Shown here: positions 3,495-52,324 of the stretch, one piece after another | Numbering within the stretch: the first letter of the stretch is position 1 | How the letters are laid out: each line of letters starts with the position of its first letter | The notes under the pieces: model-generated | Databases searched by the model: none | The model's input: only the letters and a program-made list of their open reading frames with translations | What the model was told of the DNA's origin: nothing | NCBI GenBank assembly: GCA_003514005.1 | Contig: DOSJ01000006.1 | Span: 2,281-66,280, forward strand | Source of the DNA: Candidatus Falkowbacteria bacterium | GTDB taxonomy: Bacteria > Patescibacteriota > Patescibacteriia > Patescibacteriales > UBA12075 | DNA: 64,000 nucleotides | Direction: 5' to 3' | Position numbers and translations under genes: made by a program

Positions 3495-3557
3495 TCTGGG
3501 CTTATAAGTTTTACTGTTTTCAATTATTTATTTTTTTGTTAGTATTGTGTTGACTAT

Positions 3558-3606
3558 AAACGAAGACACGAAAATAACGAAAATATACGAATTTAACGAA
3601 GTAATT
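3558..3606 (+). repeat. ACGAA-phased element, single arm (copy 2)
   Basis: AAACGAAGACACGAAAATAACGAAAATATACGAATTTAACGAAGTAAT; CG dinucleotides at 3561, 3569, 3578, 3588, 3597; near-identical to the right arms at 2747-2786 and 48415-48453. Confidence 0.65.
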
Positions 3607-6843: not shown

Positions 6844-6894
6844 ATTTGGTTTTTCCGATATGTGTACAGATTAATAATAAACTCTGTTCTCCTC

Positions 6895-7076
6895 TTGTCA
6901 TTCCCGCGCAGGCGGGAATCCAGGGGGAAAAGATCTGTGCATTATTAAACCTAATGACGTTTAAAAATATTCGAATCTTTTTCTCCTGGATTCCTGATCC
7001 CCGGCCAGCTCCGCTTGCGGGGCGGGCATTTAATATTTATAACCCTAGCGGGAATATTGTATGTCAGAAATGACAA
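6895..7076. mobile_element. Hairpin-module MITE-like element, copy B (short module ... degenerate long module)
   Basis: TTGTCATTCCCGCGCAGGCGGGAATCCAGGGGGAAAAG at the left end, CTGGATTCC...GCGGGAAT...GAAATGACAAAA at the right; architecture parallels copy E; between rpmE and prfA. Confidence 0.7.
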
Positions 7077-8432: not shown

Positions 8433-8963
8433 ATGTTAACACAAGAGCGGTCATTGGAAAGAGTTGATGTCATGTCAGTCGCAAGATTTTTGGGGATTGC
8501 CACCGCTTCTAGTCTTATCCCGTTTTATATTCATCTGCAATGGCTTACCGGGCCACTGGTAAATGCGCTTTTAATTATAGCGCTTTTTTTAATCGGCATT
8601 CGGAGCGCTATGGTGTTGTGCGTAATACCCAGTCTAATGGCGTTAGCGGGCGGACTTATACCCGCCGTTCTTGCTCCGGTTGTACCGTTTATTATGCTTA
8701 GCAATATGTTGTTTGTGTTATGCATAGATCGTCTTTACTCATTTTTTAAAAATGACAACCAAGGTTATTGGCTGGGCGTCGCAGTCGGTTCGTTTATAAA
8801 ATTTATTTTTTTGTATTTCAGCGTTTCTTTCATGTCAAAATTGCTGATAAAGCAGGAACTGGCGCAGAAAGTCGCTCAGATGATGAGCTGGCCACAGTTG
8901 GCGACAGCTTTAAGCGGCGGATTAATCGCTTGGGCGGTTTTAAAATGGTTAAAAAGAATATGA
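8433..8963 (+). CDS. Polytopic integral membrane protein (about 5 TM), function unknown
   Basis: 176 aa, almost entirely hydrophobic helices; 3-nt gap from the upstream gene; followed by a terminator. Confidence 0.65.
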   Translation: MLTQERSLERVDVMSVARFLGIATASSLIPFYIHLQWLTGPLVNALLIIALFLIGIRSAMVLCVIPSLMALAGGLIPAVLAPVVPFIMLSNMLFVLCIDRLYSFFKNDNQGYWLGVAVGSFIKFIFLYFSVSFMSKLLIKQELAQKVAQMMSWPQLATALSGGLIAWAVLKWLKRI

Positions 8964-9250: not shown

Positions 9251-10468
9251 ATGGGAAATGTTTCTATTTTAGATCAAATTATCGATACGCAAAAAGCCGA
9301 GGAGATCGCCCGGTTGGATGCTGTTGAGATAATCGACAATCTTTTTAGCGAGCTGTCAAAGCGCGAGCGCGATGTTATTATCCGGCGCTATGGTTTGCAT
9401 GGCAATGGCAAAGAAACCCTTGAAAGCATCGGTGCCGCGCATGAGCTTACCCGCGAACGCATTCGTCAAATCGAAAGTTCCAGCGTCCGCAAATTACAGC
9501 AACTGAAAAATTTGGATAAATATATCAATAATTTGAAAAAAGTTATTTATCAGCTTTTGGAAGAGCACGGCGGCTTAATGGAAAAAGAATATATGCTGGA
9601 AACTTTGGTTGGTTTTTCTATCAACGGTTTTAAGGTTGAAAGCGAGAACAAAGCAATCCATAAAAATTATTTGAATTTTCTAATCACAAAGCTTTTACAC
9701 AAAGAATTTGAAGAAGGCTCCAGCTCCAAGCATTTTAAAGAATCATACCGCTTGAAATTCAAAGAAATCGATCATCTGCAGGAATTAGCAGAACAGTTGA
9801 TTGAACATATCAAAGAAAGCAAGCGCGTATTCAAAACCGATGAGCTGATCAAAAAAATAATCGAATTCGAAAGCTATATTAAAAATAAAGAAAAATTCTC
9901 TATCCCCGGCAGTATAGATATATCCTGGACCCTGAACCGCGATTTATTTGAAGAAGATGCCGAGTTTATCAACAAGCACAAAATACTGTATTCTATTTTG
10001 CGGGCAGTGAAAAAAATAGAACAGAATAAATTCGGCGATTGGGGGATTCATAATTGGCGAGAAATCAAACCAAAAACCATCAATGACAAAATATATTTAA
10101 TATTCAAATCACATAAAAAGCCGATGCATTTTGTTGAAATCGCCGATCGGATAAACAAAATCGGTTTTGATGCAAAAAAGGCAAATCCCGCTACTGTGCA
10201 TAACGAATTAATCTTGGACGGCAAATACGTCCTGGTGGGCAGGGGATTGTACGGCTTGAAAGAATGGGGATACAAGAACGGGACCGTAGTTAATGTTATT
10301 GAAGAGATTTTTAATGAGAGTGAAAAAGAACTATTAACCCGCGACGAGATTGTTGAAAAAGTTTTGGCAAAAAGAATGGTAAAAAAAGCGACAATAATCC
10401 TGGCGCTTATGAACAAAGACAAATTTGCCAAGGAAGACGGAAAATATCGATTAATAAAAAGTATTTAA
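9251..10468 (+). CDS. Sigma-70 region-4 HTH protein with C-terminal HARE-HTH-like domain (no region 2)
   Basis: 405 aa; N-terminus ERDVIIRRYGLHGNGKETLESIGAAHELTRERIRQIESSSVRKL is a region-4 signature; C-terminus HFVEIADRINKIG...TVHNELILDGKYVLVGRGLYGLKEWGY resembles the HARE-HTH of RNAP delta. Confidence 0.7.
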   Translation: MGNVSILDQIIDTQKAEEIARLDAVEIIDNLFSELSKRERDVIIRRYGLHGNGKETLESIGAAHELTRERIRQIESSSVRKLQQLKNLDKYINNLKKVIYQLLEEHGGLMEKEYMLETLVGFSINGFKVESENKAIHKNYLNFLITKLLHKEFEEGSSSKHFKESYRLKFKEIDHLQELAEQLIEHIKESKRVFKTDELIKKIIEFESYIKNKEKFSIPGSIDISWTLNRDLFEEDAEFINKHKILYSILRAVKKIEQNKFGDWGIHNWREIKPKTINDKIYLIFKSHKKPMHFVEIADRINKIGFDAKKANPATVHNELILDGKYVLVGRGLYGLKEWGYKNGTVVNVIEEIFNESEKELLTRDEIVEKVLAKRMVKKATIILALMNKDKFAKEDGKYRLIKSI

Positions 10469-10477
10469 AATATTTCA

Positions 10478-10517
10478 AAAACAGCCTTATTAAAATAAGG
10501 CTGTTTTTGTTTTTTGT
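10478..10517 (+). terminator. Rho-independent terminator
   Basis: ACAGCCTTA (10481-10489) pairs with TAAGGCTGT (10496-10504), followed by TTTTGTTTTTTG. Confidence 0.75.
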
Positions 10518-10591
10518 AAATTGAAAAATATTAAAGTTTGAACGTGATTAGTGGTGTGAAGTTCAAGTCTGTGCTGTTCGTTGCTTAACCA

Positions 10592-11332
10592 CTAATCGTG
10601 ACCACCGTCTACCACTAAAATACTTCCGGTAATATAGCTCGTATCATCACTGGCAAAAAATAAAATTGCCTTTGCTATTTCTTCTGGTAGCGCAAATCTT
10701 TTTAGATATATCTTCCTTGTTTCATCTTCAACAAATTCTTTGGATAAATCTTTATTCATGTCAGTATCTACCCAACCTGGAGCGATCGCATTAACTTGTA
10801 TCTTCGGAGCAAGCTCTTTTGCAAAATCTTTCGTTAATGTTATTACACCAGCTTTTGAGGCGTCATAATCAATCGCGTCGGGGCTAAAGCTGTTAATCGC
10901 ATTTGTAGAAGATATGTTAATTATTTTTCCGCCAGTTTTTTTCAGCATTTGCTCAGAAACATATTTACTACAAAGAAAATTTCCAAGCAAATTGACATCC
11001 AGAGTCCTTCTCCATTGCTCAACACTTCTTTCAAGAATCGGAACATCATAAACAATTCCTGCATTGTTAACAAGAATGTCAATTCTACCAAAAGTTTTCG
11101 TAGCTTGATTAATCATTTCAATAACTTCATTTTCTTTGGAAATATCACATTTTATCGCAATTGCTTCCGAATCCATTTTTTTAATGTCATCAACAACAGC
11201 AAATGCCTCTTTTTCGGAGGAAAAATAATTAACAATAACTTTTGCGCCCTCTTTTGCAAATAACAATGCGGTGGCTTTTCCAATGCCCCTGCTGGCCCCT
11301 GTTATTAGGGCAATTTTATTTTTTAATCTCAT
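10592..11332 (-). CDS. Short-chain dehydrogenase/reductase (FabG-like)
   Basis: 246 aa; TGASRGIGKA (TGxxxGxG), NNAG, YDASKAG (YxxxK). Confidence 0.85.
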   Translation of the reverse strand: MRLKNKIALITGASRGIGKATALLFAKEGAKVIVNYFSSEKEAFAVVDDIKKMDSEAIAIKCDISKENEVIEMINQATKTFGRIDILVNNAGIVYDVPILERSVEQWRRTLDVNLLGNFLCSKYVSEQMLKKTGGKIINISSTNAINSFSPDAIDYDASKAGVITLTKDFAKELAPKIQVNAIAPGWVDTDMNKDLSKEFVEDETRKIYLKRFALPEEIAKAILFFASDDTSYITGSILVVDGGHD

Positions 11333-18913: not shown

Positions 18914-18951
18914 ATTATTGGTTCCTTTGATAATTTTATGGGTAAAAAATT

Positions 18952-19122
18952 TTGTCATTCCCGACACTCCATAGCCCCGCAGGGAATTGATATTAAATGA
19001 TCGGGAATCTTGGTATAAAAATAATAAAATAAGGATAAGATATAATGGTTTTATAACGAACATACGGTAAAAATATTTTATTATTAATAAACCAAGATTC
19101 CCGCCTTCGCGGGAATGACAAG
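18952..19122. mobile_element. Hairpin-module MITE-like element, copy C (long module 3 ... short module inverted)
   Basis: TTGTCATTCCCGACACTCC...GATCGGGAATC at the left, GATTCCCGCCTTCGCGGGAATGACAA at the right; sits between rplJ and rplL. Confidence 0.75.
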
Positions 19123-27733: not shown

Positions 27734-27762
27734 TCAATGTATTGGGATATATAAAAACTTTT

Positions 27763-27854
27763 TTGTCATTCCCGCGAAGGCGGGAATCCAGGGTTTATTG
27801 CTCGAAACTGGATTCCCGCCGGAGTTTATGCCCGGAGGGGTACGGGAATGACAA
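27763..27854. mobile_element. Hairpin-module MITE-like element, copy D (short module abutting inverted module 2, no core)
   Basis: TTGTCATTCCCGCGAAGGCGGGAATCCAGGG followed by CTGGATTCCCGCCGGAGTTTATGCCCGGAGGGGTACGGGAATGACAA; the second half is the exact reverse complement of the left module of copy E. Confidence 0.8.
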
Positions 27855-27920
27855 GCGAAGAAATTAAGTCTAAAATAATTTTTTTTAAATCCAAATCTTG
27901 AAATTAGAAATTTTATATTT

Positions 27921-35909: not shown

Positions 35910-37115
35910 ATGATATTCGAAATTTTTAAAATGGCATTTGAATCGCTTTTGGCTAAAAAAACCAGAAGTTTTTTGTCGATGTTGGGAATTATAATCGGAG
36001 TGTCTACTGTCATTGCCGTATTTGCAATCGGACAAGGAGCAAGAAATGCGGTTGATGAACAATTTGCCGGATTGAGCGCGAAATCAATTATGATAATGGG
36101 TAACATGGGACGTCCGGGTTCAACAGCTAGCTCAAAATTAAGCATCGACGATGTCAAAGTAATTCGGGATAATGCAGAACACATTGCGTTGGCCACTGGT
36201 ATCATCCAGGGCAATGCAACTGTAAGCTATGAATCCAGTGAAGCATCATATTCGGTTGTTGGAACTGATCTTGATTTTTTTCAAATTGCTAACCAAAAGA
36301 TTGTACAAGGACGAATGTTCAGTGAAGAAGAGATCAACTCAAAAGACCGCTTAGTAATTTTGGGTAGTGATGTAGTAGAAAATCTCTATACAGATAAAAA
36401 TCAAGTTATCGGCAGTACAATTACAGTTGGTGGGAAAAAACTTGAAGTGATTGGCTATTTTGAAGAAACCGGTGGCACACTGGGGCGTACCAGCAAAGAC
36501 GAAGCGGTATACGTTCCATACCAAACTGCCCAATCCAGTATTCTTGGTTCCCAAGGTGGAAATTTAATGGTTACTATGGAAGCAGATGATGTGAATAACA
36601 TCAGTATTGCCACGGAAGAAGTAACAAAAATTTTGCGCACCGAACATAAATTAAAAGACGGACAAGAGGATGATTTTCGTGTTATGGATGCTGGATCAAT
36701 GGTTGGCGCCGCTCAAGATTCCGCCTCACTTATGAGCACAGTTTTAACATTAGTTGCTGCCATTACACTTTTGGTTTCTGGGATTGGTATTATGAATGTT
36801 ATGTTTGTTACGGTCGCGGAACGAACCAAAGAAATAGGCATAGCCAAAGCTATTGGTGGTAAACAGGGCAATATCTTGACTCAATTTTTACTGGAATCAG
36901 TAATTTTGTCTACAGTTGGGGGACTTATCGGAGTTATTATCGGCCAATCAGCCATCCCAATTATTTCATATTTTAATTTAATGACCATGTCTTCATCACT
37001 TTCTGGCCCGCTTTTAGGTTTTACTTTTTCTGCAATTGTTGGCGTATTTTTTGGCTTTTACCCTGCGCTAAAAGCCAGTAAGCTTGATCCGGTCGATGCT
37101 TTGCGAAGTGAGTAG
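35910..37115 (+). CDS. ABC transporter permease (MacB/FtsX family)
   Basis: 401 aa; N-terminal TM, large periplasmic domain, then C-terminal FtsX-type 3-TM bundle (ERTKEIGIAKAIGG..., PALKASKLDPVDALR). Confidence 0.9.
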   Translation: MIFEIFKMAFESLLAKKTRSFLSMLGIIIGVSTVIAVFAIGQGARNAVDEQFAGLSAKSIMIMGNMGRPGSTASSKLSIDDVKVIRDNAEHIALATGIIQGNATVSYESSEASYSVVGTDLDFFQIANQKIVQGRMFSEEEINSKDRLVILGSDVVENLYTDKNQVIGSTITVGGKKLEVIGYFEETGGTLGRTSKDEAVYVPYQTAQSSILGSQGGNLMVTMEADDVNNISIATEEVTKILRTEHKLKDGQEDDFRVMDAGSMVGAAQDSASLMSTVLTLVAAITLLVSGIGIMNVMFVTVAERTKEIGIAKAIGGKQGNILTQFLLESVILSTVGGLIGVIIGQSAIPIISYFNLMTMSSSLSGPLLGFTFSAIVGVFFGFYPALKASKLDPVDALRSE

Positions 37116-37146
37116 TTATGGTTAGCGGGGAGGTGGGGAGTCAAAC

Positions 37147-37175
37147 TTGCTTTTTTGTAAATGTTGTGCTAATAT
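37147..37175 (+). promoter_or_regulatory. Sigma-70-type promoter (extended -10) for the orphan 325-aa gene
   Basis: TTGCTT (37147-37152), 17-nt spacer, TGCTAATAT (TAATAT 37170-37175); about 85-nt GC-richer leader ending in SD GAGGAGG. Confidence 0.55.
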
Positions 37176-37265
37176 AAAAAATTCTTTCCAATTCTGGAAA
37201 GGTCCCAAACCTCGGGTAGGGGGTGCACATTAAAAAGCGGGCTTTTAGCCTGCGAGGAGGAAGTA

Positions 37266-38243
37266 ATGAATCATCATAAAGTAAGTATTGAGAGTGTCGC
37301 AAGAGTAGTGATGGCATTGGGGTTAGACGGTTTTAAAAAACTTAGCAGTCATATGCCGGCATGCAGTGTGAAATATGCCGGATTCACCATAGGTGAAGTT
37401 GAAGCAATTCTCAATATCCTAGGTGAAGCAAATATAAAAAGAATGTTGGCGGGCGACGTTACTATTGAAATTAAGGAACTTATCCAAAAAATGGTGGATA
37501 AAAACGGACGTTTTATTCCACTGGTTGGCTCAAAAAATTACGATTGTAATCCGAAACCGGACTACAAACTTATTCAGCCGGATATTAACTATGCGGAACG
37601 GTTTAATAAAGCTGCTAAGTTTTTACACAACGCAATATTTGTATCGGCAGAGGAATACCAGAAGAGGAGCGAAAAACTTATTGAACAATTGCAAAATGAC
37701 CCTATGTTTTCAAATTTATTAAACGGCGTTTGGCTACCCGTCTGTTATCCTGAGTTTCGAGTTTCTGATTACAAAAAAGATCTGTTTGGATATTTCTTAA
37801 ATGCTGTTACTGCTTCATATGCACTTCAGATTCCAGGAAGGTATTTTAATAATTACATAAAAGTTGTGTTTCCAGGAAAAATTAAAATTGTTGATGAGAG
37901 TCATGAACGTTTTATTGCTAAGATGGCCAAAGGTCCGCTTGTGGGACTCCAGTTTTTCCCTTTTCAAGGATTTTCCATCAACGCAGTAAGGGAATTAATG
38001 TCGATACTTCCGAAGTCAATGTATCTTTCAGGTCCGATTGATTTTGCAGTTGCGATGACTATCCATCCTGATATCTTGGCACGTGATTATTTTACACCAT
38101 GTTACGATTGTTCTGCGGTATCTTGGGATTCCAGCTACTCGACATATTTTGTTGCCACCCAAGAAAGTTTAAGGTTTGATTGTGCCTTAGGTTTCGGCAA
38201 TGCGCATAGCCACTCTACCAGTAGCTTGATTTACCTCGGATAA
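37266..38243 (+). CDS. Orphan hypothetical protein (325 aa)
   Basis: Long ORF with a strong SD, its own promoter and its own terminator; no motif I can assign. Confidence 0.7.
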   Translation: MNHHKVSIESVARVVMALGLDGFKKLSSHMPACSVKYAGFTIGEVEAILNILGEANIKRMLAGDVTIEIKELIQKMVDKNGRFIPLVGSKNYDCNPKPDYKLIQPDINYAERFNKAAKFLHNAIFVSAEEYQKRSEKLIEQLQNDPMFSNLLNGVWLPVCYPEFRVSDYKKDLFGYFLNAVTASYALQIPGRYFNNYIKVVFPGKIKIVDESHERFIAKMAKGPLVGLQFFPFQGFSINAVRELMSILPKSMYLSGPIDFAVAMTIHPDILARDYFTPCYDCSAVSWDSSYSTYFVATQESLRFDCALGFGNAHSHSTSSLIYLG

Positions 38244-38303
38244 TAGTTTAGGCTACTTACCTTTTTTCATTAACTGCATTTTTTGTTCTTTAAGAAGTAT
38301 ACT

Positions 38304-38336
38304 GGAGGCGTGAGTAACCCGCCTCCTTTTATTTTT
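38304..38336 (+). terminator. Rho-independent terminator
   Basis: GGAGGCG (38304-38310) pairs with CGCCTCC (38320-38326), followed by TTTTATTTTT. Confidence 0.8.
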
Positions 38337-38436
38337 GAGAAATTTTAGTTAAATTGATTCAAACTATTTTTTTTCCTTGAGAATTATTTGAGTACAGATT
38401 GTCTAATATGCGTTTAAAAATAAGGGAAGAATTATG

Positions 38437-38464
38437 TAGTGATTATTAGGGGGGGGGTAATAAA
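38437..38464. repeat. G9 homopolymer tract in a conserved context, copy 2
   Basis: TAGTGATTATTAGGGGGGGGGTAATAAA; nine G at 38449-38457; ends 11 nt upstream of the -35 of the XRE promoter. Confidence 0.6.
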
Positions 38465-38468
38465 TAAT

Positions 38469-38505
38469 TTGACAAATTTATTTGGTGTGGTAAAATATTA
38501 CCACA
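38469..38505 (+). promoter_or_regulatory. Promoter with overlapping operator-like palindrome (XRE-ImmA module)
   Basis: TTGACA (38469-38474), 16-nt spacer, TAAAAT (38491-38496); palindrome TGTGGTAA-AATA-TTACCACA at 38486-38505 covers the -10. Confidence 0.6.
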
Positions 38506-38580
38506 GTTAATAAATCTTTTCCCCATACCTAAAAAGCTCGTGAATTTTATCATGCTTTTTAATTCGTGGGTCATAAACAT

Positions 38581-38958
38581 ATGGAGAAAAAAACAAACAA
38601 TTTCGGGGCAATACTCAAAGAATTTCGTTTTAAAAAAAACCTAAGTTTAAGAGAGGTATGTAAAGAGATTGGCTATGATCCAAGCAATTGGAGCAAGATT
38701 GAGCGGGGAGTATTGGCTCCACCGACCGACTTAAATACTTTGCATAAATGGGCGCTTACTTTGGGTCTAAAAAAGGGCGATAGCGCGTATCAAGATTTTA
38801 TCGACCAAGCCAATATATCACAGGGTATAATCCCAGAGGACATTCTGGCTCAAAAAAATCTGGTCAAAAGCCTACCGGCCTTTTTCCGCACTATTCGCAA
38901 CGACAAGCCATCCAAGGAGGAGATTGATACGTTGATTAAATTAATTAGGAATTCTTAA
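38581..38958 (+). CDS. XRE-family helix-turn-helix transcriptional regulator
   Basis: FGAILKEFRFKKNLSLREVCKEIGYDPSNWSKIERG is an HTH_3 pattern; the track ORF starts at a GTG (38566), and I prefer the ATG at 38581. Confidence 0.85.
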   Translation: MEKKTNNFGAILKEFRFKKNLSLREVCKEIGYDPSNWSKIERGVLAPPTDLNTLHKWALTLGLKKGDSAYQDFIDQANISQGIIPEDILAQKNLVKSLPAFFRTIRNDKPSKEEIDTLIKLIRNS

Positions 38959-38963
38959 AGCAA

Positions 38964-39578
38964 ATGGATTTTAGCAAATTCAGAACACCTTACATTAAAA
39001 AAGACGTTATTAAAATCAAGGCTGATACTTTTCGGAAAATGTACTGGAATGATTCTATTCCCGTAGATATCGAAAAGATTATAGATGTCAAATTGGGTAT
39101 TGACATTATTCCGACTCCGGACATGATGAAGCTTTGCAATACCGATGCCTTAATCTCATCTGATTTTACTTCAATTAACGTTGATAACGATTGGTACAAT
39201 GACGAGCGAAATATGAACCGTCTCCGTTTTTCTTTGGCACACGAAATGGGTCATTTTGTTTTGCATAAGGATATTTATGGAAGTTTTAAGATTGAAAGTC
39301 TTGATGATTTTTATAATTTTATAGAAAACATCTCTCAACAAACCTACCGGAGCATGGAATGGCAAGCGCAAACCTTTGCCAGTTATTTGCTGGTCCCGCG
39401 AGACATGGTGAGGTCTGTTTACAAAAAAATTTATGATGAAGTGCGACAAAGCGCTTCTATGGATTTTTCAAATATTGAGGAAGAATTTTTAAATGATCTT
39501 ATGTCTGTGCCAATGAGTAAAGAATTCGGAATTTCAGCGGAGGCGATGTTTTATGTGTTGAGTGAGTATAAAAATTGA
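38964..39578 (+). CDS. ImmA/IrrE-family (M78, COG2856-type) zinc metallopeptidase
   Basis: 204 aa; FSLAHEMGHFVLH (HExxH) followed by EWQAQTFASYLLVP; 5-nt gap from the XRE gene. Confidence 0.85.
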   Translation: MDFSKFRTPYIKKDVIKIKADTFRKMYWNDSIPVDIEKIIDVKLGIDIIPTPDMMKLCNTDALISSDFTSINVDNDWYNDERNMNRLRFSLAHEMGHFVLHKDIYGSFKIESLDDFYNFIENISQQTYRSMEWQAQTFASYLLVPRDMVRSVYKKIYDEVRQSASMDFSNIEEEFLNDLMSVPMSKEFGISAEAMFYVLSEYKN

Positions 39579-39645
39579 TTTTATGGATTTTAAATAATAA
39601 TATTTTAAAAATAATTTTCGTTTGCATGCTTGGCGATGAATAATT

Positions 39646-40044
39646 ATGGAAAAGCGATTTATCGTCCTCATGCTTTTGTTATTTTCACTTTCTGCCTGCA
39701 CCGCGTACGATATCCCTCAAACTTATGTAGAGCCGGTCGAGAAATCGGTTATTGAGAGACCGATTGATACAAGCAGTTTGACTGTTCCGGAAAAAAGCTC
39801 TGTTAGTGAACGGACTGAAACAGATGCGAAAACAAAAACAGTTACCGAAAAACCAAGCATTGATGTTCCGCTTTCCAATGACAATCACTACACCAATGTC
39901 GATGGCAACGAAGTTCATTCTCCGGCTTTCGCCCCATCCCGCCCATCCGGCGCTTCGGCCATGTGTAGAGACGGGAGTTATTCATTCTCACAGAATCGAC
40001 GGGGGACTTGCTCGCGGCATGGTGGGGTTGAGGAGTGGTATTAG
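39646..40044 (+). CDS. Lipoprotein with C-terminal DUF3761-like domain
   Basis: 132 aa; lipobox LSAC; C-terminus GASAMCRDGSYSFSQNRRGTCSRHGGVEEWY matches the DUF3761 signature as I recall it. Confidence 0.7.
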   Translation: MEKRFIVLMLLLFSLSACTAYDIPQTYVEPVEKSVIERPIDTSSLTVPEKSSVSERTETDAKTKTVTEKPSIDVPLSNDNHYTNVDGNEVHSPAFAPSRPSGASAMCRDGSYSFSQNRRGTCSRHGGVEEWY

Positions 40045-40113
40045 GACAATATTACCATATTCATTATTGCCGTAACTTCAGTATAGAGGGAATATTATTA
40101 AATAAAAAAAATT

Positions 40114-41253
40114 ATGAACGAATTTGATGTTGTAAATTTAAACAAACAGATGTTCCAGCTTACTATTCAGCTGCTCAAGTCTACTTGGCCATTAATTTTG
40201 TTTGCTATTGTTGCGTCAGTAACGATTCGATGGACTGAAAAGAATATTCAGGAAAAATCAATTAAATTTTTTGTAAGAAAACATAAAATAGAAATTTATA
40301 CAGGTATTTTTGGTATTGTAGGTTATGTAATAAGCTACTTATTTATTGAACAGCCAAATATTACATTATTAATGAATGTGGTAATTACTATAACGGTAAT
40401 TTCATTAGTTATATATTCAAAAACTAAAGACAGAGATTTTTATTTTATCTCACTGTTAAATGATCTTGAAAGATATGAATGGATAGGTCAAGGTACTTTT
40501 CAATTTAATAGAAATGAAAAATCGTTTGAAATTACAAATTCTCATTCTGGTTATATTTATCCCAGATGTCTAAATTGGAGTGATTATTACACTAATTTTG
40601 AATTTAAAATTATAAACAAAAGCTTAGGTGTTATTTTGCGCGCAACAAATTTATCAAATTTAGTTATGCTTCAAATATTTGATGAAGGAATAAAAGCACA
40701 CATAAGAGTAAATGGATTTTGGCAGTCTTGGGATATGCATAGCACTCATTTAAAATTTAGTCATAGGTTAAATTTGGATCAATGGTATGAGTTTAGCGCA
40801 TATTGTGATAAAAACTCTATCAAGGTTGTGATATCAGAAAATGATTTAGAAAATAAAACCGTTTTCGATAGAAGCTGGAGTATTCCAACTGGTAGTATAA
40901 ACTTTGAAATTAAAAATGGCGATGAAATTAGTGGTACAATGCCTTTTTCAATAAATTTGGAATTCGGAACATTGGGTTTTAGAAACCATGGGGACGAAAG
41001 GGCGTTAGTTAAAAATTTATTTAATGAATTACCCCGGGGCAGAGCCCCGAGGTATCTCGCTGTTAGCAAGATGTTGTGTTTTAAAAAAACTTTAGTTGTC
41101 CTTCATGGATCCGTACGTAGTTGCTACTCTGCTTTTCGATGTAACTTCTTATCATTGCTTCATTTCCGTATTGCCCCACAGTATTGGCATAGTAGCCCGA
41201 TGTCCATAGACTCCCTCCCCAAAGTATCTTCTTTATTTCAGGATGTTTTTTGA
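40114..41253 (+). CDS. 3-TM membrane protein with DUF1080/LamG-like jelly-roll domain; native 3' end displaced by the IS200/IS605 insertion
   Basis: The native-looking sequence ends ...GTLGFRNHGDERALVKNLFNEL at about 41031 (a DUF1080-like C-terminal motif); codons from 41032 onward translate the IS hairpin and the antisense of tnpA. Confidence 0.6.
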   Translation: MNEFDVVNLNKQMFQLTIQLLKSTWPLILFAIVASVTIRWTEKNIQEKSIKFFVRKHKIEIYTGIFGIVGYVISYLFIEQPNITLLMNVVITITVISLVIYSKTKDRDFYFISLLNDLERYEWIGQGTFQFNRNEKSFEITNSHSGYIYPRCLNWSDYYTNFEFKIINKSLGVILRATNLSNLVMLQIFDEGIKAHIRVNGFWQSWDMHSTHLKFSHRLNLDQWYEFSAYCDKNSIKVVISENDLENKTVFDRSWSIPTGSINFEIKNGDEISGTMPFSINLEFGTLGFRNHGDERALVKNLFNELPRGRAPRYLAVSKMLCFKKTLVVLHGSVRSCYSAFRCNFLSLLHFRIAPQYWHSSPMSIDSLPKVSSLFQDVF

Positions 41254-41617
41254 ATATCCCCTTGGCAGTGATACTCTTTATCTTCATAACCATTTCAGAA
41301 ACAGACATATTGGGAATTCCCTGCACCAAGAAATGTACATGATTTTCATCCGCCCCAATCTCAACAAAATTCATTTCATAGCATATGCCAATTTCAGAAC
41401 AAATGTCACGCAAAGTAATCTCAACTTCTTTTGTCAAAACAAAACGCCGATATTTCACCGGAAATACTATATGATACAATAACAATGTTTTATTATGTCT
41501 TTTGAATACATGTTTATCATCTGTCATGAATACATTATATATGTAATCCACGGTCTTGAAAACCTACGGTTTTCAAACTTTCCCTCCTTATGGTAACCCC
41601 GGGGCAGAGCCCCGAGG
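41031..41617 (-). mobile_element. IS200/IS605-family insertion sequence (about 587 bp)
   Basis: Y1 transposase gene bracketed by identical 22-nt direct copies ACCCCGGGGCAGAGCCCCGAGG (41031-41052 and 41596-41617), each containing the hairpin CGGGGC-AGA-GCCCCG. Confidence 0.8.
41081..41551 (-). CDS. tnpA: IS200/IS605 family Y1 (HUH) transposase TnpA
   Basis: LLLYHIVFPVKYRR, HUH motif ENHVHFLVQ, catalytic Tyr region WTSGYYANTVG; start may be Met9 (41527). Confidence 0.9.
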   Translation of the reverse strand: MDYIYNVFMTDDKHVFKRHNKTLLLYHIVFPVKYRRFVLTKEVEITLRDICSEIGICYEMNFVEIGADENHVHFLVQGIPNMSVSEMVMKIKSITAKGIFKKHPEIKKILWGGSLWTSGYYANTVGQYGNEAMIRSYIEKQSSNYVRIHEGQLKFF

Positions 41618-41799
41618 AATTCTTTCGATTAAAAAAATACAATATTAAAAATTACAAAAAATTAATAAAAAAAGAATTTAGACAACCCCTAGAAATATTA
41701 AAAAATGCTATTGTTTACGTTTTCTTAATAGTGTAGCATGGGTGTAATATGTGTGTAATTACACTCGTATTACTTTTTATATCATTTAATTCGATACCC

Positions 41800-41828
41800 T
41801 TGACCGATTTAATTATTTTAGATAGAAT
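41800..41828 (+). promoter_or_regulatory. Sigma-70-type promoter for tRNA-Thr
   Basis: TTGACC (41800-41805), 17-nt spacer, TAGAAT (41823-41828); tRNA begins 29 nt downstream. Confidence 0.6.
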
Positions 41829-41856
41829 AATTAAAGTGATATTAAAAAAAACAATT

Positions 41857-41929
41857 GCCGGTGTAACTCAGTTGGTAGAGTAGTGGTTTTGTAAACCATT
41901 TGTCGGGGGTTCGAGTCCTCTCGCCGGCT
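41857..41929 (+). tRNA. tRNA-Thr (anticodon UGU)
   Basis: Hand-folded cloverleaf: acceptor GCCGGTG/CGCCGGC, D-arm ACTC-AGTTGGTA-GAGT, anticodon stem GTGGT/ACCAT with loop TTTGTAA (TGT), T-arm GGGGG-TTCGAGT-CCTCT; no encoded CCA. Confidence 0.9.
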
Positions 41930-41937
41930 CATATTTT

Positions 41938-41970
41938 AAAAAGACTGCCTTTTAGCAGTCTTTTTAATTT
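41938..41970 (+). terminator. Rho-independent terminator after the tRNA
   Basis: GACTGC (41943-41948) pairs with GCAGTC (41955-41960), flanked by an A-run and followed by TTTTTAATTTT. Confidence 0.7.
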
Positions 41971-42009
41971 TGATTTATTAGATAATTCTGCAGATAAATA
42001 GTAAACATT

Positions 42010-42190
42010 GTTTTTCTCTTGTCATTCCCGTACCCCTCCGGGCATAAACTCCGGCGGGAATCCAGGGGGAAAAGCGCTTAATGTTCTAAACTAGTATAAT
42101 TGATTATGATATTCGAATTATTTACCCCTGGATTCCCGATCATTTAATATCTATTCTCTGCCGAGGGCAAGGAGTGTCGGGAATGACAAA
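42010..42190. mobile_element. Hairpin-module MITE-like element, copy E (module 2 ... module 3 inverted)
   Basis: TTGTCATTCCCGTACCCCTCCGGGCATAAACTCCGGCGGGAATCCAGGGGGAAAAG at the left, CTGGATTCCCGATCATTTAATAT...GTGTCGGGAATGACAAA at the right. Confidence 0.8.
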
Positions 42191-42292
42191 ATATTTTACA
42201 CATAAAATTGTCAAAAAAATTATATTTTGAATTATTATTAAAATAATGATATAATAATATCAGATAATTGATGATAATAATAGGAAAAAATA

Positions 42293-43336
42293 ATGGAAAT
42301 AGAACCATATTTCAAGTCAGCTATTGAAAATAATGCCTCTGATTTGCATTTGGTAGAGGGGAGTATTCCGGCGCTAAGAGTTTCTGGAGAATTGATAAAA
42401 TTTAATGAAAATCCCATACCTTTTGGCGAATTAAGGCATGCTATAAATTTGAAAATAGATAAAAACACCAGAGAACGATTTGAAAGAAAACGTGATTTGG
42501 ATTTATCCATGGTTTTTTTTAAAAACCGTTTTCGCGTAAACCTGCATTTTCAAGATGGCAAAATCGGCTTGACAGCCAGACTTGTACCGATTCAAATCCC
42601 GACACCAAAAGATATCAGACTAACGGAGACAATCTATGCCTTGACGCATCTGAAAGACGGGTTAATCCTTGTAACCGGTGCTTCCGGAACCGGAAAATCA
42701 ACAACACTGGCCGTAATGCTGGATATTATCAATACGGAACGGCGTTCGCACATTATCACTATTGAGGATCCGATTGAATATGATTTTCAAGACAAACAAA
42801 GTATAGTCGAGCAAAGACAGCTTGGCAGAGATACCTCTAGCTTTGCTGACGCGTTAAAATACGCTCTTCGCCAAGACCCGAACGTGATCATGGTTGGCGA
42901 GATGCGCGACCTTGATACTATATCCGCGGCTTTGACTGCGGCTAAAACCGGTCATTTGGTTTTATCAACACTGCACACCGCGACTGCCGCTGAAACTGTT
43001 GAACGCATTGTCGATTTTTTTCCTTCACAGAACCAGGGCTTGATAACTGGACAGCTTTCAACCGTACTTAGGGCGGTGATTTCCCAACAGCTGTTGCCGA
43101 AAAAAGACGGCGGATTAATCGCCGCCCGTGAAATATTAATCAATAATCGAGCTATTGCAAACCTGATCCGCAATAATCAAGTATCGCAAATCGGCAATGC
43201 TATCCAGACCGGGGGACAAGAAGGCATGATTACCATGAACAAGGCGATTGATAATTTGTTTCAAGAAGGACTTATCACGGAACAAGTAGCGCGAAATCGT
43301 AAGCGCGACCTAGAAACACAAGCTGCTTATTATTAA
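42293..43336 (+). CDS. pilT: Type IV pilus retraction ATPase PilT
   Basis: 347 aa; ASDLHL, Walker A GASGTGKSTTLA, IITIEDPIEY, Walker B IMVGEMRD, LVLSTLHT. Confidence 0.92.
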   Translation: MEIEPYFKSAIENNASDLHLVEGSIPALRVSGELIKFNENPIPFGELRHAINLKIDKNTRERFERKRDLDLSMVFFKNRFRVNLHFQDGKIGLTARLVPIQIPTPKDIRLTETIYALTHLKDGLILVTGASGTGKSTTLAVMLDIINTERRSHIITIEDPIEYDFQDKQSIVEQRQLGRDTSSFADALKYALRQDPNVIMVGEMRDLDTISAALTAAKTGHLVLSTLHTATAAETVERIVDFFPSQNQGLITGQLSTVLRAVISQQLLPKKDGGLIAAREILINNRAIANLIRNNQVSQIGNAIQTGGQEGMITMNKAIDNLFQEGLITEQVARNRKRDLETQAAYY

Positions 43337-48343: not shown

Positions 48344-48354
48344 AACAAGATAAA

Positions 48355-48453
48355 TCGTATTTCTTCGTTAATTTCGTATTTTTTCGTTTTTTTCGTGTCT
48401 TTGTTAAAAACAGAGACACTAAAAAAACGAAAATATACGAATAAAACGAAAAT
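48355..48453. repeat. ACGAA-phased long hairpin element, full copy 3
   Basis: Left arm CGTATTTCTTCGTTAATTTCGTATTTTTTCGTTTTTTTCGTGTCT, right arm AGACACTAAAAAAACGAAAATATACGAATAAAACGAAAAT; begins 12 nt after the micro-ORF stop. Confidence 0.7.
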
Positions 48454-51307: not shown

Positions 51308-52324
51308 ATGGAAGAAAAAATTCAAATTCTTTGGCAATCTTTAAAAGAAAAAGGCGCAACCAATAGCGAGTTTTGCGAACTTATCAAAAATATTCCAGAA
51401 TTAAGGGAAGAAGCTTGGCAGGAATTGAAAAAGAAAAATCCAAGTAACAATGACTTGCGTTTTCTAATAGAGCATGTGCCATCAATGCTTACCGTATTAT
51501 GGACCGAACTTAAGAAACGCAATATCTCGAATTATGAGCTCAAAAATATTATAGAATATGTTGAACCTCTGCGCAAAGAAGCTTGGAAATTATTACAAAA
51601 ACAAAAGCCAACGAATTTTGAACTTAGGGATATTGCCCGCTATGTTGATGTTTTACGTCATGACGCTTGGAAAATATTGCGCAAAAATAACCCAAGTGAA
51701 AATGATCTGCTATATATCATAAAATTTGTTGAATCCTTGCGCCATGATGCTTGGAAATCTCTTTCAAAAATCAAACCAGACATATCCAGCTTGATTTACA
51801 TCATGAAATACGTTCCGGAATTACGGAAAGATGCTTGGCTTATGGTAATAAAATTAAAAAAATCCAGTGAGGTTGTCGCAAAAGTTATCAAAGAAGTTCC
51901 AGAGCTTCGCGAAGAAGCCTGGAATAGATTAATCAAGCAAGATCCTGATACTGATAATTTATGCATGATCATGAAAAATGTTCCCGAGCTCCGCGAAGAA
52001 GCTTGGAAAAAACTTTGCGACCGAGGGTGCATGAATGTAGATCTGCGATTTATAATCAAAAACATCGAGGAGTTGCGCGATGTTGCCTGGAAAAAATTGC
52101 TTGAGCAAGGCGCAAGCAATGATGATTACTGTTTTATCATCAAAGACGTAAAAGGCTTGCGAGTCCAAGCCTGGGAAAGATTTATAAAAAACAATCCAAC
52201 TAATGAAGAGATTGATTTCATAATAAAATATATACCCACCATGAAAGAATACGCGCAAAAATTCAAAAATGAGGACAAAAATTCAATCTTAAAAGAAATT
52301 ATAAAAAATTATGGACAACAATGA
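51308..52324 (+). CDS. Tandem-repeat protein: ten in-phase 28-residue helical repeats
   Basis: Residues 25-304 (nt 51380-52219) parse into ten exact 28-aa units, consensus xIIKxVPELREEAWKxLxKxNPxxxDLxF, with an invariant Trp in each unit. Confidence 0.75.
   Translation: MEEKIQILWQSLKEKGATNSEFCELIKNIPELREEAWQELKKKNPSNNDLRFLIEHVPSMLTVLWTELKKRNISNYELKNIIEYVEPLRKEAWKLLQKQKPTNFELRDIARYVDVLRHDAWKILRKNNPSENDLLYIIKFVESLRHDAWKSLSKIKPDISSLIYIMKYVPELRKDAWLMVIKLKKSSEVVAKVIKEVPELREEAWNRLIKQDPDTDNLCMIMKNVPELREEAWKKLCDRGCMNVDLRFIIKNIEELRDVAWKKLLEQGASNDDYCFIIKDVKGLRVQAWERFIKNNPTNEEIDFIIKYIPTMKEYAQKFKNEDKNSILKEIIKNYGQQ

Follow-up and report, generated by a model that had tools for sequence, protein, structure and literature searches.

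The stretch examined here, positions 37116-41856, lies in a 64-kb window (the whole stretch of DNA that was analysed, 64,000 nt) of a Candidatus Falkowbacteria contig of approximately 167 kb; searches of the genome itself covered this window. An exact match of the 325-aa protein described below assigned the window to contig US83_C0001 of Candidatus Falkowbacteria bacterium GW2011_GWC2_38_22. Between the gene for a MacB-type ABC permease and the tRNA-Thr(UGU) gene, five genes were found: an open reading frame (ORF) of 325 aa; a gene for an XRE-family repressor and, behind it, one for an ImmA/IrrE zinc metalloprotease; a DUF3761 lipoprotein gene; and a membrane-protein gene, the 3' end of which is overlapped by an IS200-type insertion sequence (IS). 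ORF, hidden Markov model (HMM) and tRNA calls recovered every feature listed in a first-pass annotation, each where it had been placed (Table 1), and supported its view that the genes have no housekeeping role. Its statement that integrase, capsid and conjugation genes are absent was also upheld, none being detected in Pfam, NCBIfam and PHROG scans.

The interval is probably composed of four units that are independent of each other and adjoin only in the present genome lineage, with the tRNA-Thr gene as a bystander. The units are (A) the 325-aa gene with its own terminator, (B) the XRE-ImmA pair, (C) the DUF3761 and membrane-protein genes, and (D) the IS200 element.

Promoters had been proposed for at least two of the genes. 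The promoter scan of the region agrees with this for XRE, and found no consensus promoter for the 325-aa, DUF3761 or membrane-protein genes. The terminator that had been proposed for one gene is present behind the 325-aa gene as a 7-bp GC-rich stem at 38304-38326 with a 9-nt loop, folding at -7.8 kcal/mol (z = -4.97) and followed by a T-run; the automated terminator scan overlooked this hairpin owing to the 9-nt loop.

Table 1. Features of the five-gene stretch and its surroundings (window coordinates; VR, variable repeat of a retroelement; L003 and L173, loci with relatives of the 325-aa gene)
Feature	Position	Strand	Remarks
MacB-type ABC permease	35910-37115		left neighbour of the five-gene stretch
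325-aa ORF ("orphan")	37266-38243	+	325 aa; no match in four HMM libraries (Pfam, NCBIfam, PHROG, PADLOC)
VR-equivalent stretch, residues W287-G325 of the 325-aa protein	38124-38240	+	from alignment to the VRs of L003 and L173
Intrinsic-terminator-like hairpin and T-run after the 325-aa gene	38304-38336	+	GGAGGCG-9 nt-CGCCTCC, then TTTTATTTTT
XRE promoter and overlapping palindromic operator	38469-38515	+	TTGACA-16-TAAAAT with TG
XRE-family repressor	38581-38958 from ATG (125 aa); GTG start 38566 (130 aa)	+	Pfam HTH_31
ImmA/IrrE (COG2856, Peptidase_M78) zinc metalloprotease	38964-39578	+	204 aa; HEMGH motif
DUF3761 lipoprotein	39646-40044	+	132 aa; Pfam DUF3761, 94.8 bits, 4.5e-27
Membrane protein ORF	40114-41253	+	379 aa; native part ~40114-41030
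IS200-type insertion sequence, minimum extent	41031-41618	-	two identical same-orientation hairpin 21-22-mers; tnpA only
IS200/IS605 Y1 (HUH) transposase TnpA	41081-41551	-	156 aa (148 aa from ATG); Pfam Y1_Tnp
Promoter-like site of tRNA-Thr	41800-41828	+	10/12 consensus positions
tRNA-Thr(UGU)	41857-41930	+	ARAGORN, Rfam
Terminator-like hairpin after tRNA-Thr	41936-41967		
pilT	42293-43336		right neighbour of tRNA-Thr
REP/MITE-like repeats	42011-42215; 1373-1513; 6886-6936; 18926-19122; 27754-27862		

The XRE-ImmA pair

The XRE protein, called as 125 aa in other assemblies, has an N-terminal helix-turn-helix (HTH) domain, which scored 30.5 bits with Pfam HTH_31 (cut-off 27); its C-terminal domain comprises approximately 55 aa. 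The ImmA gene follows after a gap of 5 nt. Its product matched PF06114 (Peptidase_M78) with 48.3 bits (cut-off 22), and H93, E94 and H97 of the HEMGH motif at residues 93-97 are invariant in 32 homologs. More than 247 full-length homologs with 45-56% identity form a subfamily that extends across the Candidate Phyla Radiation (CPR). The earlier identification of the two genes as a genuine repressor/protease module holds.

Genomic context was surveyed in 80 metagenome loci from a profile search with ImmA, approximately 70 of which were informative. An XRE homolog (34-65% identity) is located directly upstream of the ImmA homolog in approximately 60 of the 70; loci without the pair are mostly truncated contigs or carry the most distant ImmA matches. 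Clustering of the 271 neighbouring proteins gave groups of 4 members at most, the downstream genes run on the other strand in about half of the cases, and relatives of the 325-aa protein, the DUF3761 protein or the membrane protein were present in none of the approximately 70 loci. Since the pair is kept while its neighbours do not recur, conservation is confined to one module, XRE-ImmA, which consists of two genes.

Upstream of XRE, TTGACA and TAAAAT with a 16-nt spacer and an upstream TG (38469-38496) match 11 of 12 consensus positions and form a strong promoter-like site of the sigma-70 type, the best in the region. The core of the putative operator, GTGGTAAAATATTACCAC at 38487-38504, is a perfect 7 + 7 palindrome, GTGGTAA-AATA-TTACCAC (GTGGTA-N6-TACCAC), centred on the -10 box, and the inverted repeat as a whole has 18-nt arms at 38476-38493 and 38498-38515. 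The motif GTGGTA-N4-8-TACCAC, with one mismatch at most, occurred within 200 nt upstream of XRE in 32 of 53 related loci, against a background of approximately 3 sites in 276 kb. The arrangement of TTGACA followed by this motif recurs upstream of XRE relatives down to approximately 40% identity. The possibility that the 325-aa, DUF3761 or membrane-protein genes carry the operator as well was rejected, as the window has only the single site at XRE.

Judged from these sequence features, XRE and ImmA/COG2856 are probably a self-contained, autonomous two-gene switch. The XRE/COG2856 pairs ImmR/ImmA, DdrO/IrrE and Rir/Crh are repressor/anti-repressor switches (PMC6868357), and by analogy XRE would be expected to silence the promoter from which it is transcribed, and the protease to lift this repression after a signal. 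An XRE dimer would repress the promoter, as in ImmR/ImmA and DdrO/IrrE, and after a stress signal the metalloprotease would cleave or antagonise XRE, leading to derepression of the operon. The pair resembles ImmR/ImmA of ICEBs1, DdrO/IrrE of Deinococcus and Rir/Crh of phage TP-J34 in having a repressor of approximately 125 aa followed by a COG2856/M78 protease with HEXXH motif, and in having a palindromic operator at the promoter, a sign of autoregulation. Its protease is of the short ImmA type and lacks the GAF-like domain that IrrE has. Unlike ImmR/ImmA and Rir/Crh, the pair lies outside any recognisable mobile element, and unlike DdrO, it has no regulon in the 64 kb that could be detected apart from its own promoter. 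It differs from all the studied pairs in belonging to a CPR-wide subfamily with varying neighbours, and sequence similarity to them is confined to the domain cores.

An alternative function, as a type II toxin-antitoxin-like addiction module in which the protease is the toxin, XRE the antitoxin and persistence is selfish, was considered unlikely. The strict two-gene layout, autoregulated promoter, non-recurrent neighbours and patchy distribution would fit the modules predicted by Makarova et al. (PMC2701414), and the nearest NCBIfam model is "spr1629 family repressor/antitoxin". However, at 35 bits this match is far below the cut-off of 335, overexpression of pneumococcal COG2856 proteins had no toxic effect (PMC4257102), and every studied pair acts as a repressor/anti-repressor switch (PMC6868357).

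The best-scoring named model for the protease was capP of PADLOC (1.8e-18, residues 17-155), with XRE matching capH weakly (0.012), and the profile of the ImmA subfamily matched the CapP structure 7T5T (1.7e-8, residues 85-152). CapH and CapP are regulators of cyclic-oligonucleotide-based anti-phage signalling systems (CBASS) and of other defence operons. The order of HTH protein and protease is the same in both pairs; they differ in that no PADLOC-recognised defence gene adjoins the present one and in that the match covers the protease core only. PADLOC scanning of all neighbours gave nothing significant, and no CBASS or other defence operon was found adjacent.

Envelope genes and the IS200 insertion

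The DUF3761 protein has a signal peptide with the lipobox LSAC at residues 15-18 and a Cys-rich C-terminal domain. Relatives of it were found near none of the XRE-ImmA or membrane-protein homolog loci. The native part of the membrane protein consists of N-terminal hydrophobic helices and a domain of approximately 190 aa resembling DUF1080/3-keto-disaccharide hydrolase; the Pfam PF06439 match of the window protein is weak (E = 0.015), and four homologs have a precomputed match. The 43 homologs, of approximately 310 aa, stand alone: one lies beside the genes for initiation factor IF3 and ribosomal proteins L35 and L20 (L089), one after a LexA-like operon by ribosomal genes (L091) and one near pyrimidine biosynthesis genes (L090).

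A further homolog is located in a variable, defence-like region (L087, 124-6945), which also holds an N6/N4 methyltransferase, a divergently transcribed, distant XRE+M78 pair, Hypoth_Ymh, DUF4145 and DUF6602.

Both envelope genes are co-directional with XRE-ImmA, with gaps of 67 and 69 nt, and neither 39579-39645 nor 40045-40113 contains a promoter-like or terminator-like site. Read-through from the XRE promoter into both genes is plausible on this sequence layout, and it would be a local accident of arrangement, not a conserved cassette.

A cassette of the CapH/CapP type, in which XRE-ImmA silences DUF3761 and membrane/lectin-like effectors until phage attack or damage, would account for the same layout: the protease resembles CapP, the two envelope genes follow in the same direction with no signal between them, and in the variable region of L087 the membrane-protein homolog has another XRE+M78 pair at a distance of 3 kb. 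Such a cassette is nevertheless improbable. The envelope genes occur in 0 of the approximately 70 XRE-ImmA loci, where the downstream genes are non-recurrent and about half of them point the other way; membrane-protein homologs stand by themselves beside ribosomal and translation genes; the envelope proteins have no PADLOC match; and the similarity to capP is limited to the shared M78 protease core.

The transposase TnpA matched Pfam Y1_Tnp (PF01797) with 121.6 bits (2.6e-35) and NCBIfam transpos_IS200 (NF033573) with 121.5 bits against a cut-off of 55 (2.4e-35), and its translation shows the HVH and YY..Q motifs. A hairpin-forming sequence, (a)CCCCGGGGCAGAGCCCCGAGG, occurs in two identical copies in direct orientation, one at 41032-41052 and the other at 41597-41617, where chance alone would give 0; folded as single-stranded DNA, they reach -11.1 and -9.7 kcal/mol. 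The flanks of the IS show no further similarity to each other, and neither terminal inverted repeats nor tnpB were found. The element is like IS200 (IS200/IS605, tnpA-only) in its Y1 HUH transposase far above the cut-offs, its size of approximately 0.6 kb, the lack of tnpB and of terminal inverted repeats, and the hairpins of the same orientation near both ends. It differs in that its two hairpins share one sequence of 22 nt and in that insertion at the stop codon of a host gene produced a fusion ORF.

The first-pass annotation had the gene set end in an insertion sequence. An IS200 is indeed present, but its position is within the membrane-protein ORF, at the 3' end. The C-terminus of the homologs reads ...VKNxLxEK[IL], and homology of the window protein stops at ...VKNLFNEL, directly before the IS hairpin, which indicates that the stop codon and one or two residues in front of it were replaced by the IS. 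The 379-aa ORF thus consists of approximately 305 native residues and 74 read-through residues that run through the IS end, antisense to tnpA. It appears that IS200 entered the gene within its final one or two codons, removed the stop and added the 74-residue tail. Copies of the hairpin in 172 loci were only re-assemblies of the same locus, and the window has a single copy of the IS.

The 325-aa gene and its family

The 325-aa gene was wrongly labelled an orphan: it belongs to a large family, and some of its relatives are targets of diversity-generating retroelements (DGRs). A profile search returned at least 591 representatives of 50% clusters at E ≤ 1e-3, 356 of them at E ≤ 1e-30; a word-index search had returned 12 homologs. 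The protein belongs to the size class of approximately 300 aa and has no signal peptide, transmembrane segment or Pfam domain.

In one related locus (L003), the homolog P0010 (8001-8903) is followed by bAvd and RVT_1 genes. A 125-nt repeat links the VR at 8781-8905, which covers the last codons of P0010, with an intergenic template repeat (TR) at 9275-9399; the two are 85% identical, and 17 of the 19 mismatches are at TR adenines. In a Magasanikbacteria contig (L173), the homolog P0005 (185-1120) is likewise accompanied by bAvd, a reverse transcriptase (RT) and a 124-nt repeat; here the two copies are 84% identical, and TR adenines account for 15 of the 20 mismatches. The DGRs were identified on the basis of these TR/VR repeats, the adenine-biased mismatches and the adjacent Avd and RT genes. 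On this sequence evidence, the relatives of the 325-aa protein in the two loci are DGR variable proteins, with the VR in the last 40 codons or so. Two further homologs of one 90% cluster, P0007 and P0321 from another lineage, show no difference in 263 residues and 14 differences in the last 37, giving independent support for natural diversification of the family. The window protein is 38-40% identical to the two DGR targets over approximately 300 aa and has the scaffold columns in common with them. In the last 40 columns of the 106-sequence family alignment, conserved scaffold positions (W287, S292, L293, F295, F304, S318 and G320) alternate with columns of more than 3 bits of entropy.

The DGR-linked genes are far richer in GC than their loci (52.6% vs 33.9% in L003, 63.5% vs 47.0% in L173, with VRs at 67%), which suggests recent cassette transfer or a compositional constraint tied to DGR function. 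In L003, the RT is split into two ORFs (9785-10872) at a (GAGA)n tract with RERERERE in both frames; a frameshift, slippage at the tract or faulty assembly would each explain the split. Another contig (L175) ends 54 nt past the stop of the homolog P0006 (3914-4846), as expected if assembly breaks at the VR/TR repeat, but this is uninformative alone. In L173 (185-5052), the DGR cassette with its target lies approximately 3 kb upstream of a pilT homolog 57% identical to that of the window, in which the 325-aa gene is approximately 4 kb upstream of pilT. The similar spacing is probably a coincidence, since no relative of the 325-aa gene was seen in 80 pilT-anchored loci.

An AlphaFold2 model built on the deeper, 106-sequence alignment had a mean predicted local distance difference test score (pLDDT) of 94.7; a model from 12 sequences reached only 70.5, and its fold search was empty. 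With the better model, a Foldseek search of PDB and BFVD gave no match at E ≤ 1e-3. Local similarity was highest to C-type lectin domains and a Bdellovibrio fibre-tip domain, but weak (TM 0.44-0.52, E > 0.5). In the model, the order of strand, helix, helix and strands in residues 225-323 is compatible with a C-type-lectin-like fold.

DGR targets in CPR bacteria are typically without a recognisable domain (PMC8144416), and many of their VRs fall in unnamed classes, the "UVR" classes of Wu et al. 2018 (PMC5758913); the 325-aa family plausibly belongs among them. It resembles the CPR DGR variable proteins of Roux et al. 2021 (PMC8144416) and Wu et al. 2018 (PMC5758913) in its length of approximately 300 aa, the lack of domains, the VR at the extreme C-terminus, the TR, Avd and RT with adenine-specific mismatches in relatives, and an order of secondary structure in the last 100 or so residues that may fit a C-type-lectin-like fold. 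The window copy differs from these proteins in having no TR, RT or Avd nearby and no variation.

Seven contexts of the family were informative, and DGR genes are adjacent in two of them (L003 and L173). Elsewhere, homologs lie among housekeeping genes, flanked by a VTT-domain gene and the gene for triose-phosphate isomerase (L002), near S-adenosylmethionine synthetase (L001), beside metal-transport genes (L174) and beside an M28 peptidase (L176). The XRE-ImmA pair adjoins none of the homologs in the contexts examined.

In the window, blastn and tblastn with the RT and Avd of L003 and with the VR as queries detected no TR, RT or Avd. The 325-aa gene has 38% GC and its VR-equivalent 44% in a window of 36%, compared with 53-63% for the DGR-linked genes, 67% for their VRs and 34-47% for their loci. 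One invariant protein sequence was found on 20 contigs from several bins and metagenome-assembled genomes, and the window copy departs from the family at near-invariant residues of the VR 3' end (S318T and G320S). Because of these four properties, the gene is read as fixed; judged from sequence, it looks like a frozen, DGR-less member of the family. Its product would be a binding protein of fixed specificity, descended from DGR targets or a sister to them.

It is very unlikely that the 325-aa gene is instead an active remote target of a DGR elsewhere in the same genome. In favour of this, DGRs target members of the family in two loci, the VR varies in nature, remote targets are documented (PMC5758913) and the search covered 64 kb. 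On the other hand, the protein is invariant across several assemblies, its gene has host-like GC without the GC-rich VR of the linked copies, S318 and G320 are changed where the target-recognition sequence would lie, and the CPR DGRs surveyed tended to have a single adjacent target (PMC5758913).

A bolder reading of the frozen copy is put forward tentatively, as a possibility that is rather less likely than not to be correct: the 325-aa family may be a widespread cytoplasmic CPR family (at least 591 clusters) with a confidently modelled fold unmatched in Foldseek, constituting a new kind of DGR scaffold of which the window gene is a naturally frozen copy.

Origin of the neighbourhood

The first-pass annotation had suggested a decayed element or a cassette with the 325-aa protein or the membrane proteins as cargo. 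This proposal is largely unsupported by the comparison, as relatives of each component live separately. An exact-protein look-up of ImmA found the same arrangement, with the IS included, on 24 of the 24 contigs read.

In the closest available genomes (L005 and L006; PilT 81% identical), the order of nine genes on the downstream side of pilT is the one seen in the window. Upstream of pilT, nothing is shared with them, the ABC transporter included (80 pilT-anchored loci), and none of 32 related loci (L005-L040) has tRNA-Thr(UGU) before pilT. Because the left flank is conserved in no relative, the synteny comparison around tRNA-Thr is uninformative.

Relative to L005-L040, the break in synteny directly upstream of pilT is sharp (41857-42293).

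A single decayed integrative element, a remnant of a prophage or of an integrative and conjugative element (ICE) that entered at tRNA-Thr, lost its integrase and structural genes and kept an immunity module, cargo and IS, was judged highly doubtful. In its favour, ICEBs1 and phages are under the control of XRE-ImmA modules (PMC6868357), the five-gene block adjoins a tRNA gene and contains an IS, and the region upstream of pilT is non-syntenic with relatives. However, the Pfam, NCBIfam and PHROG scans detected no element gene of any kind, and the components are found separately elsewhere. The att-like direct repeat that was to be looked for is lacking, the 3' half of tRNA-Thr having no second copy in the 64 kb, and the GC of the five genes (0.30-0.39) is inside the range of the window (0.29-0.44). 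Integrative elements that target tRNA genes are generally located on the 3' side of their target, whereas the five genes are on the 5' side of tRNA-Thr. In 2.9 million IMG/VR viral contigs, the ImmA subfamily had 4 weak partial matches and the 325-aa family none. Finally, the loss of synteny reaches far past the five genes, since the ABC transporter is also absent in the relatives.

Several points weigh against the reading as a mosaic and against parts of it. The nearest genomes differ everywhere upstream of pilT, so that synteny speaks neither for nor against insertion as a block. The membrane-protein homolog located 3 kb from a distantly related XRE+M78 pair (L087) hints at a looser tie to variable or defence-type regions. 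Co-transcription of XRE-ImmA with the DUF3761 and membrane-protein genes is a prediction whose sole basis is the absent consensus signals. With two of seven contexts DGR-adjacent, "DGR target" fits only part of the 325-aa family, and a DGR may act in trans on the window gene from outside the 64 kb searched. The IS is present as a single copy, and the coordinates given for it are a minimum extent.

Other repeats were observed in the window. Intergenic palindromic repeats resembling repetitive extragenic palindromes or miniature inverted-repeat transposable elements (REP/MITE), with the core TGTCATTCCCGCGCAGGCGGGAATC, are present in at least 9 copies or arms. A composite copy of approximately 200 nt lies directly 3' of tRNA-Thr, its arms 96% and 85-87% complementary to distant copies. 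These repeats were considered as hairpins of the IS200, in a relation like that of REP-associated tyrosine transposases (RAYT), and were rejected because the sequences differ. A second family, rich in ACGAAAA/TTTTCGT, forms long imperfect palindromes at 2688-2792, 3518-3606 and 48353-48450, in three intergenic regions upstream of the genes at 2823, 3627 and 48395; they could be shared regulatory sites or another MITE. The ORF at 51308-52324 contains an array (51383-52176) of a coding repeat, 84 nt or 28 aa in length and present at least 7 times, with 66-84% identity over a 38-nt core, and this gene is kept in L005 and L006 with approximately 62% identity.

The components of the locus are of known kinds: an XRE/COG2856 switch, a DUF3761 protein, a DUF1080-like membrane protein, an IS200 and a DGR variable-protein homolog. 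In CPR genomes, proximity to a tRNA gene together with XRE-ImmA and an IS is insufficient to call a mobile or defence element. The IS200 is a clear case of an insertion that creates a C-terminal fusion on a host membrane protein. For the CPR-wide XRE/COG2856 subfamily, the predicted operator GTGGTA-N4-8-TACCAC over the -10 box makes the regulon searchable in complete genomes.

A CPR family free of annotation can now be labelled a DGR variable-protein family, with a high-confidence model and a defined VR scaffold; this identity concerns the family more than the locus in the window. Members without a DGR could serve as natural controls for what such targets bind. If the tentative reading of the window gene as a naturally frozen copy of a new DGR scaffold is true, binders evolved by DGRs get fixed and retained as ordinary genes, and a comparison of frozen with diversifying members could show what the unexplained DGR targets of CPR bacteria bind.

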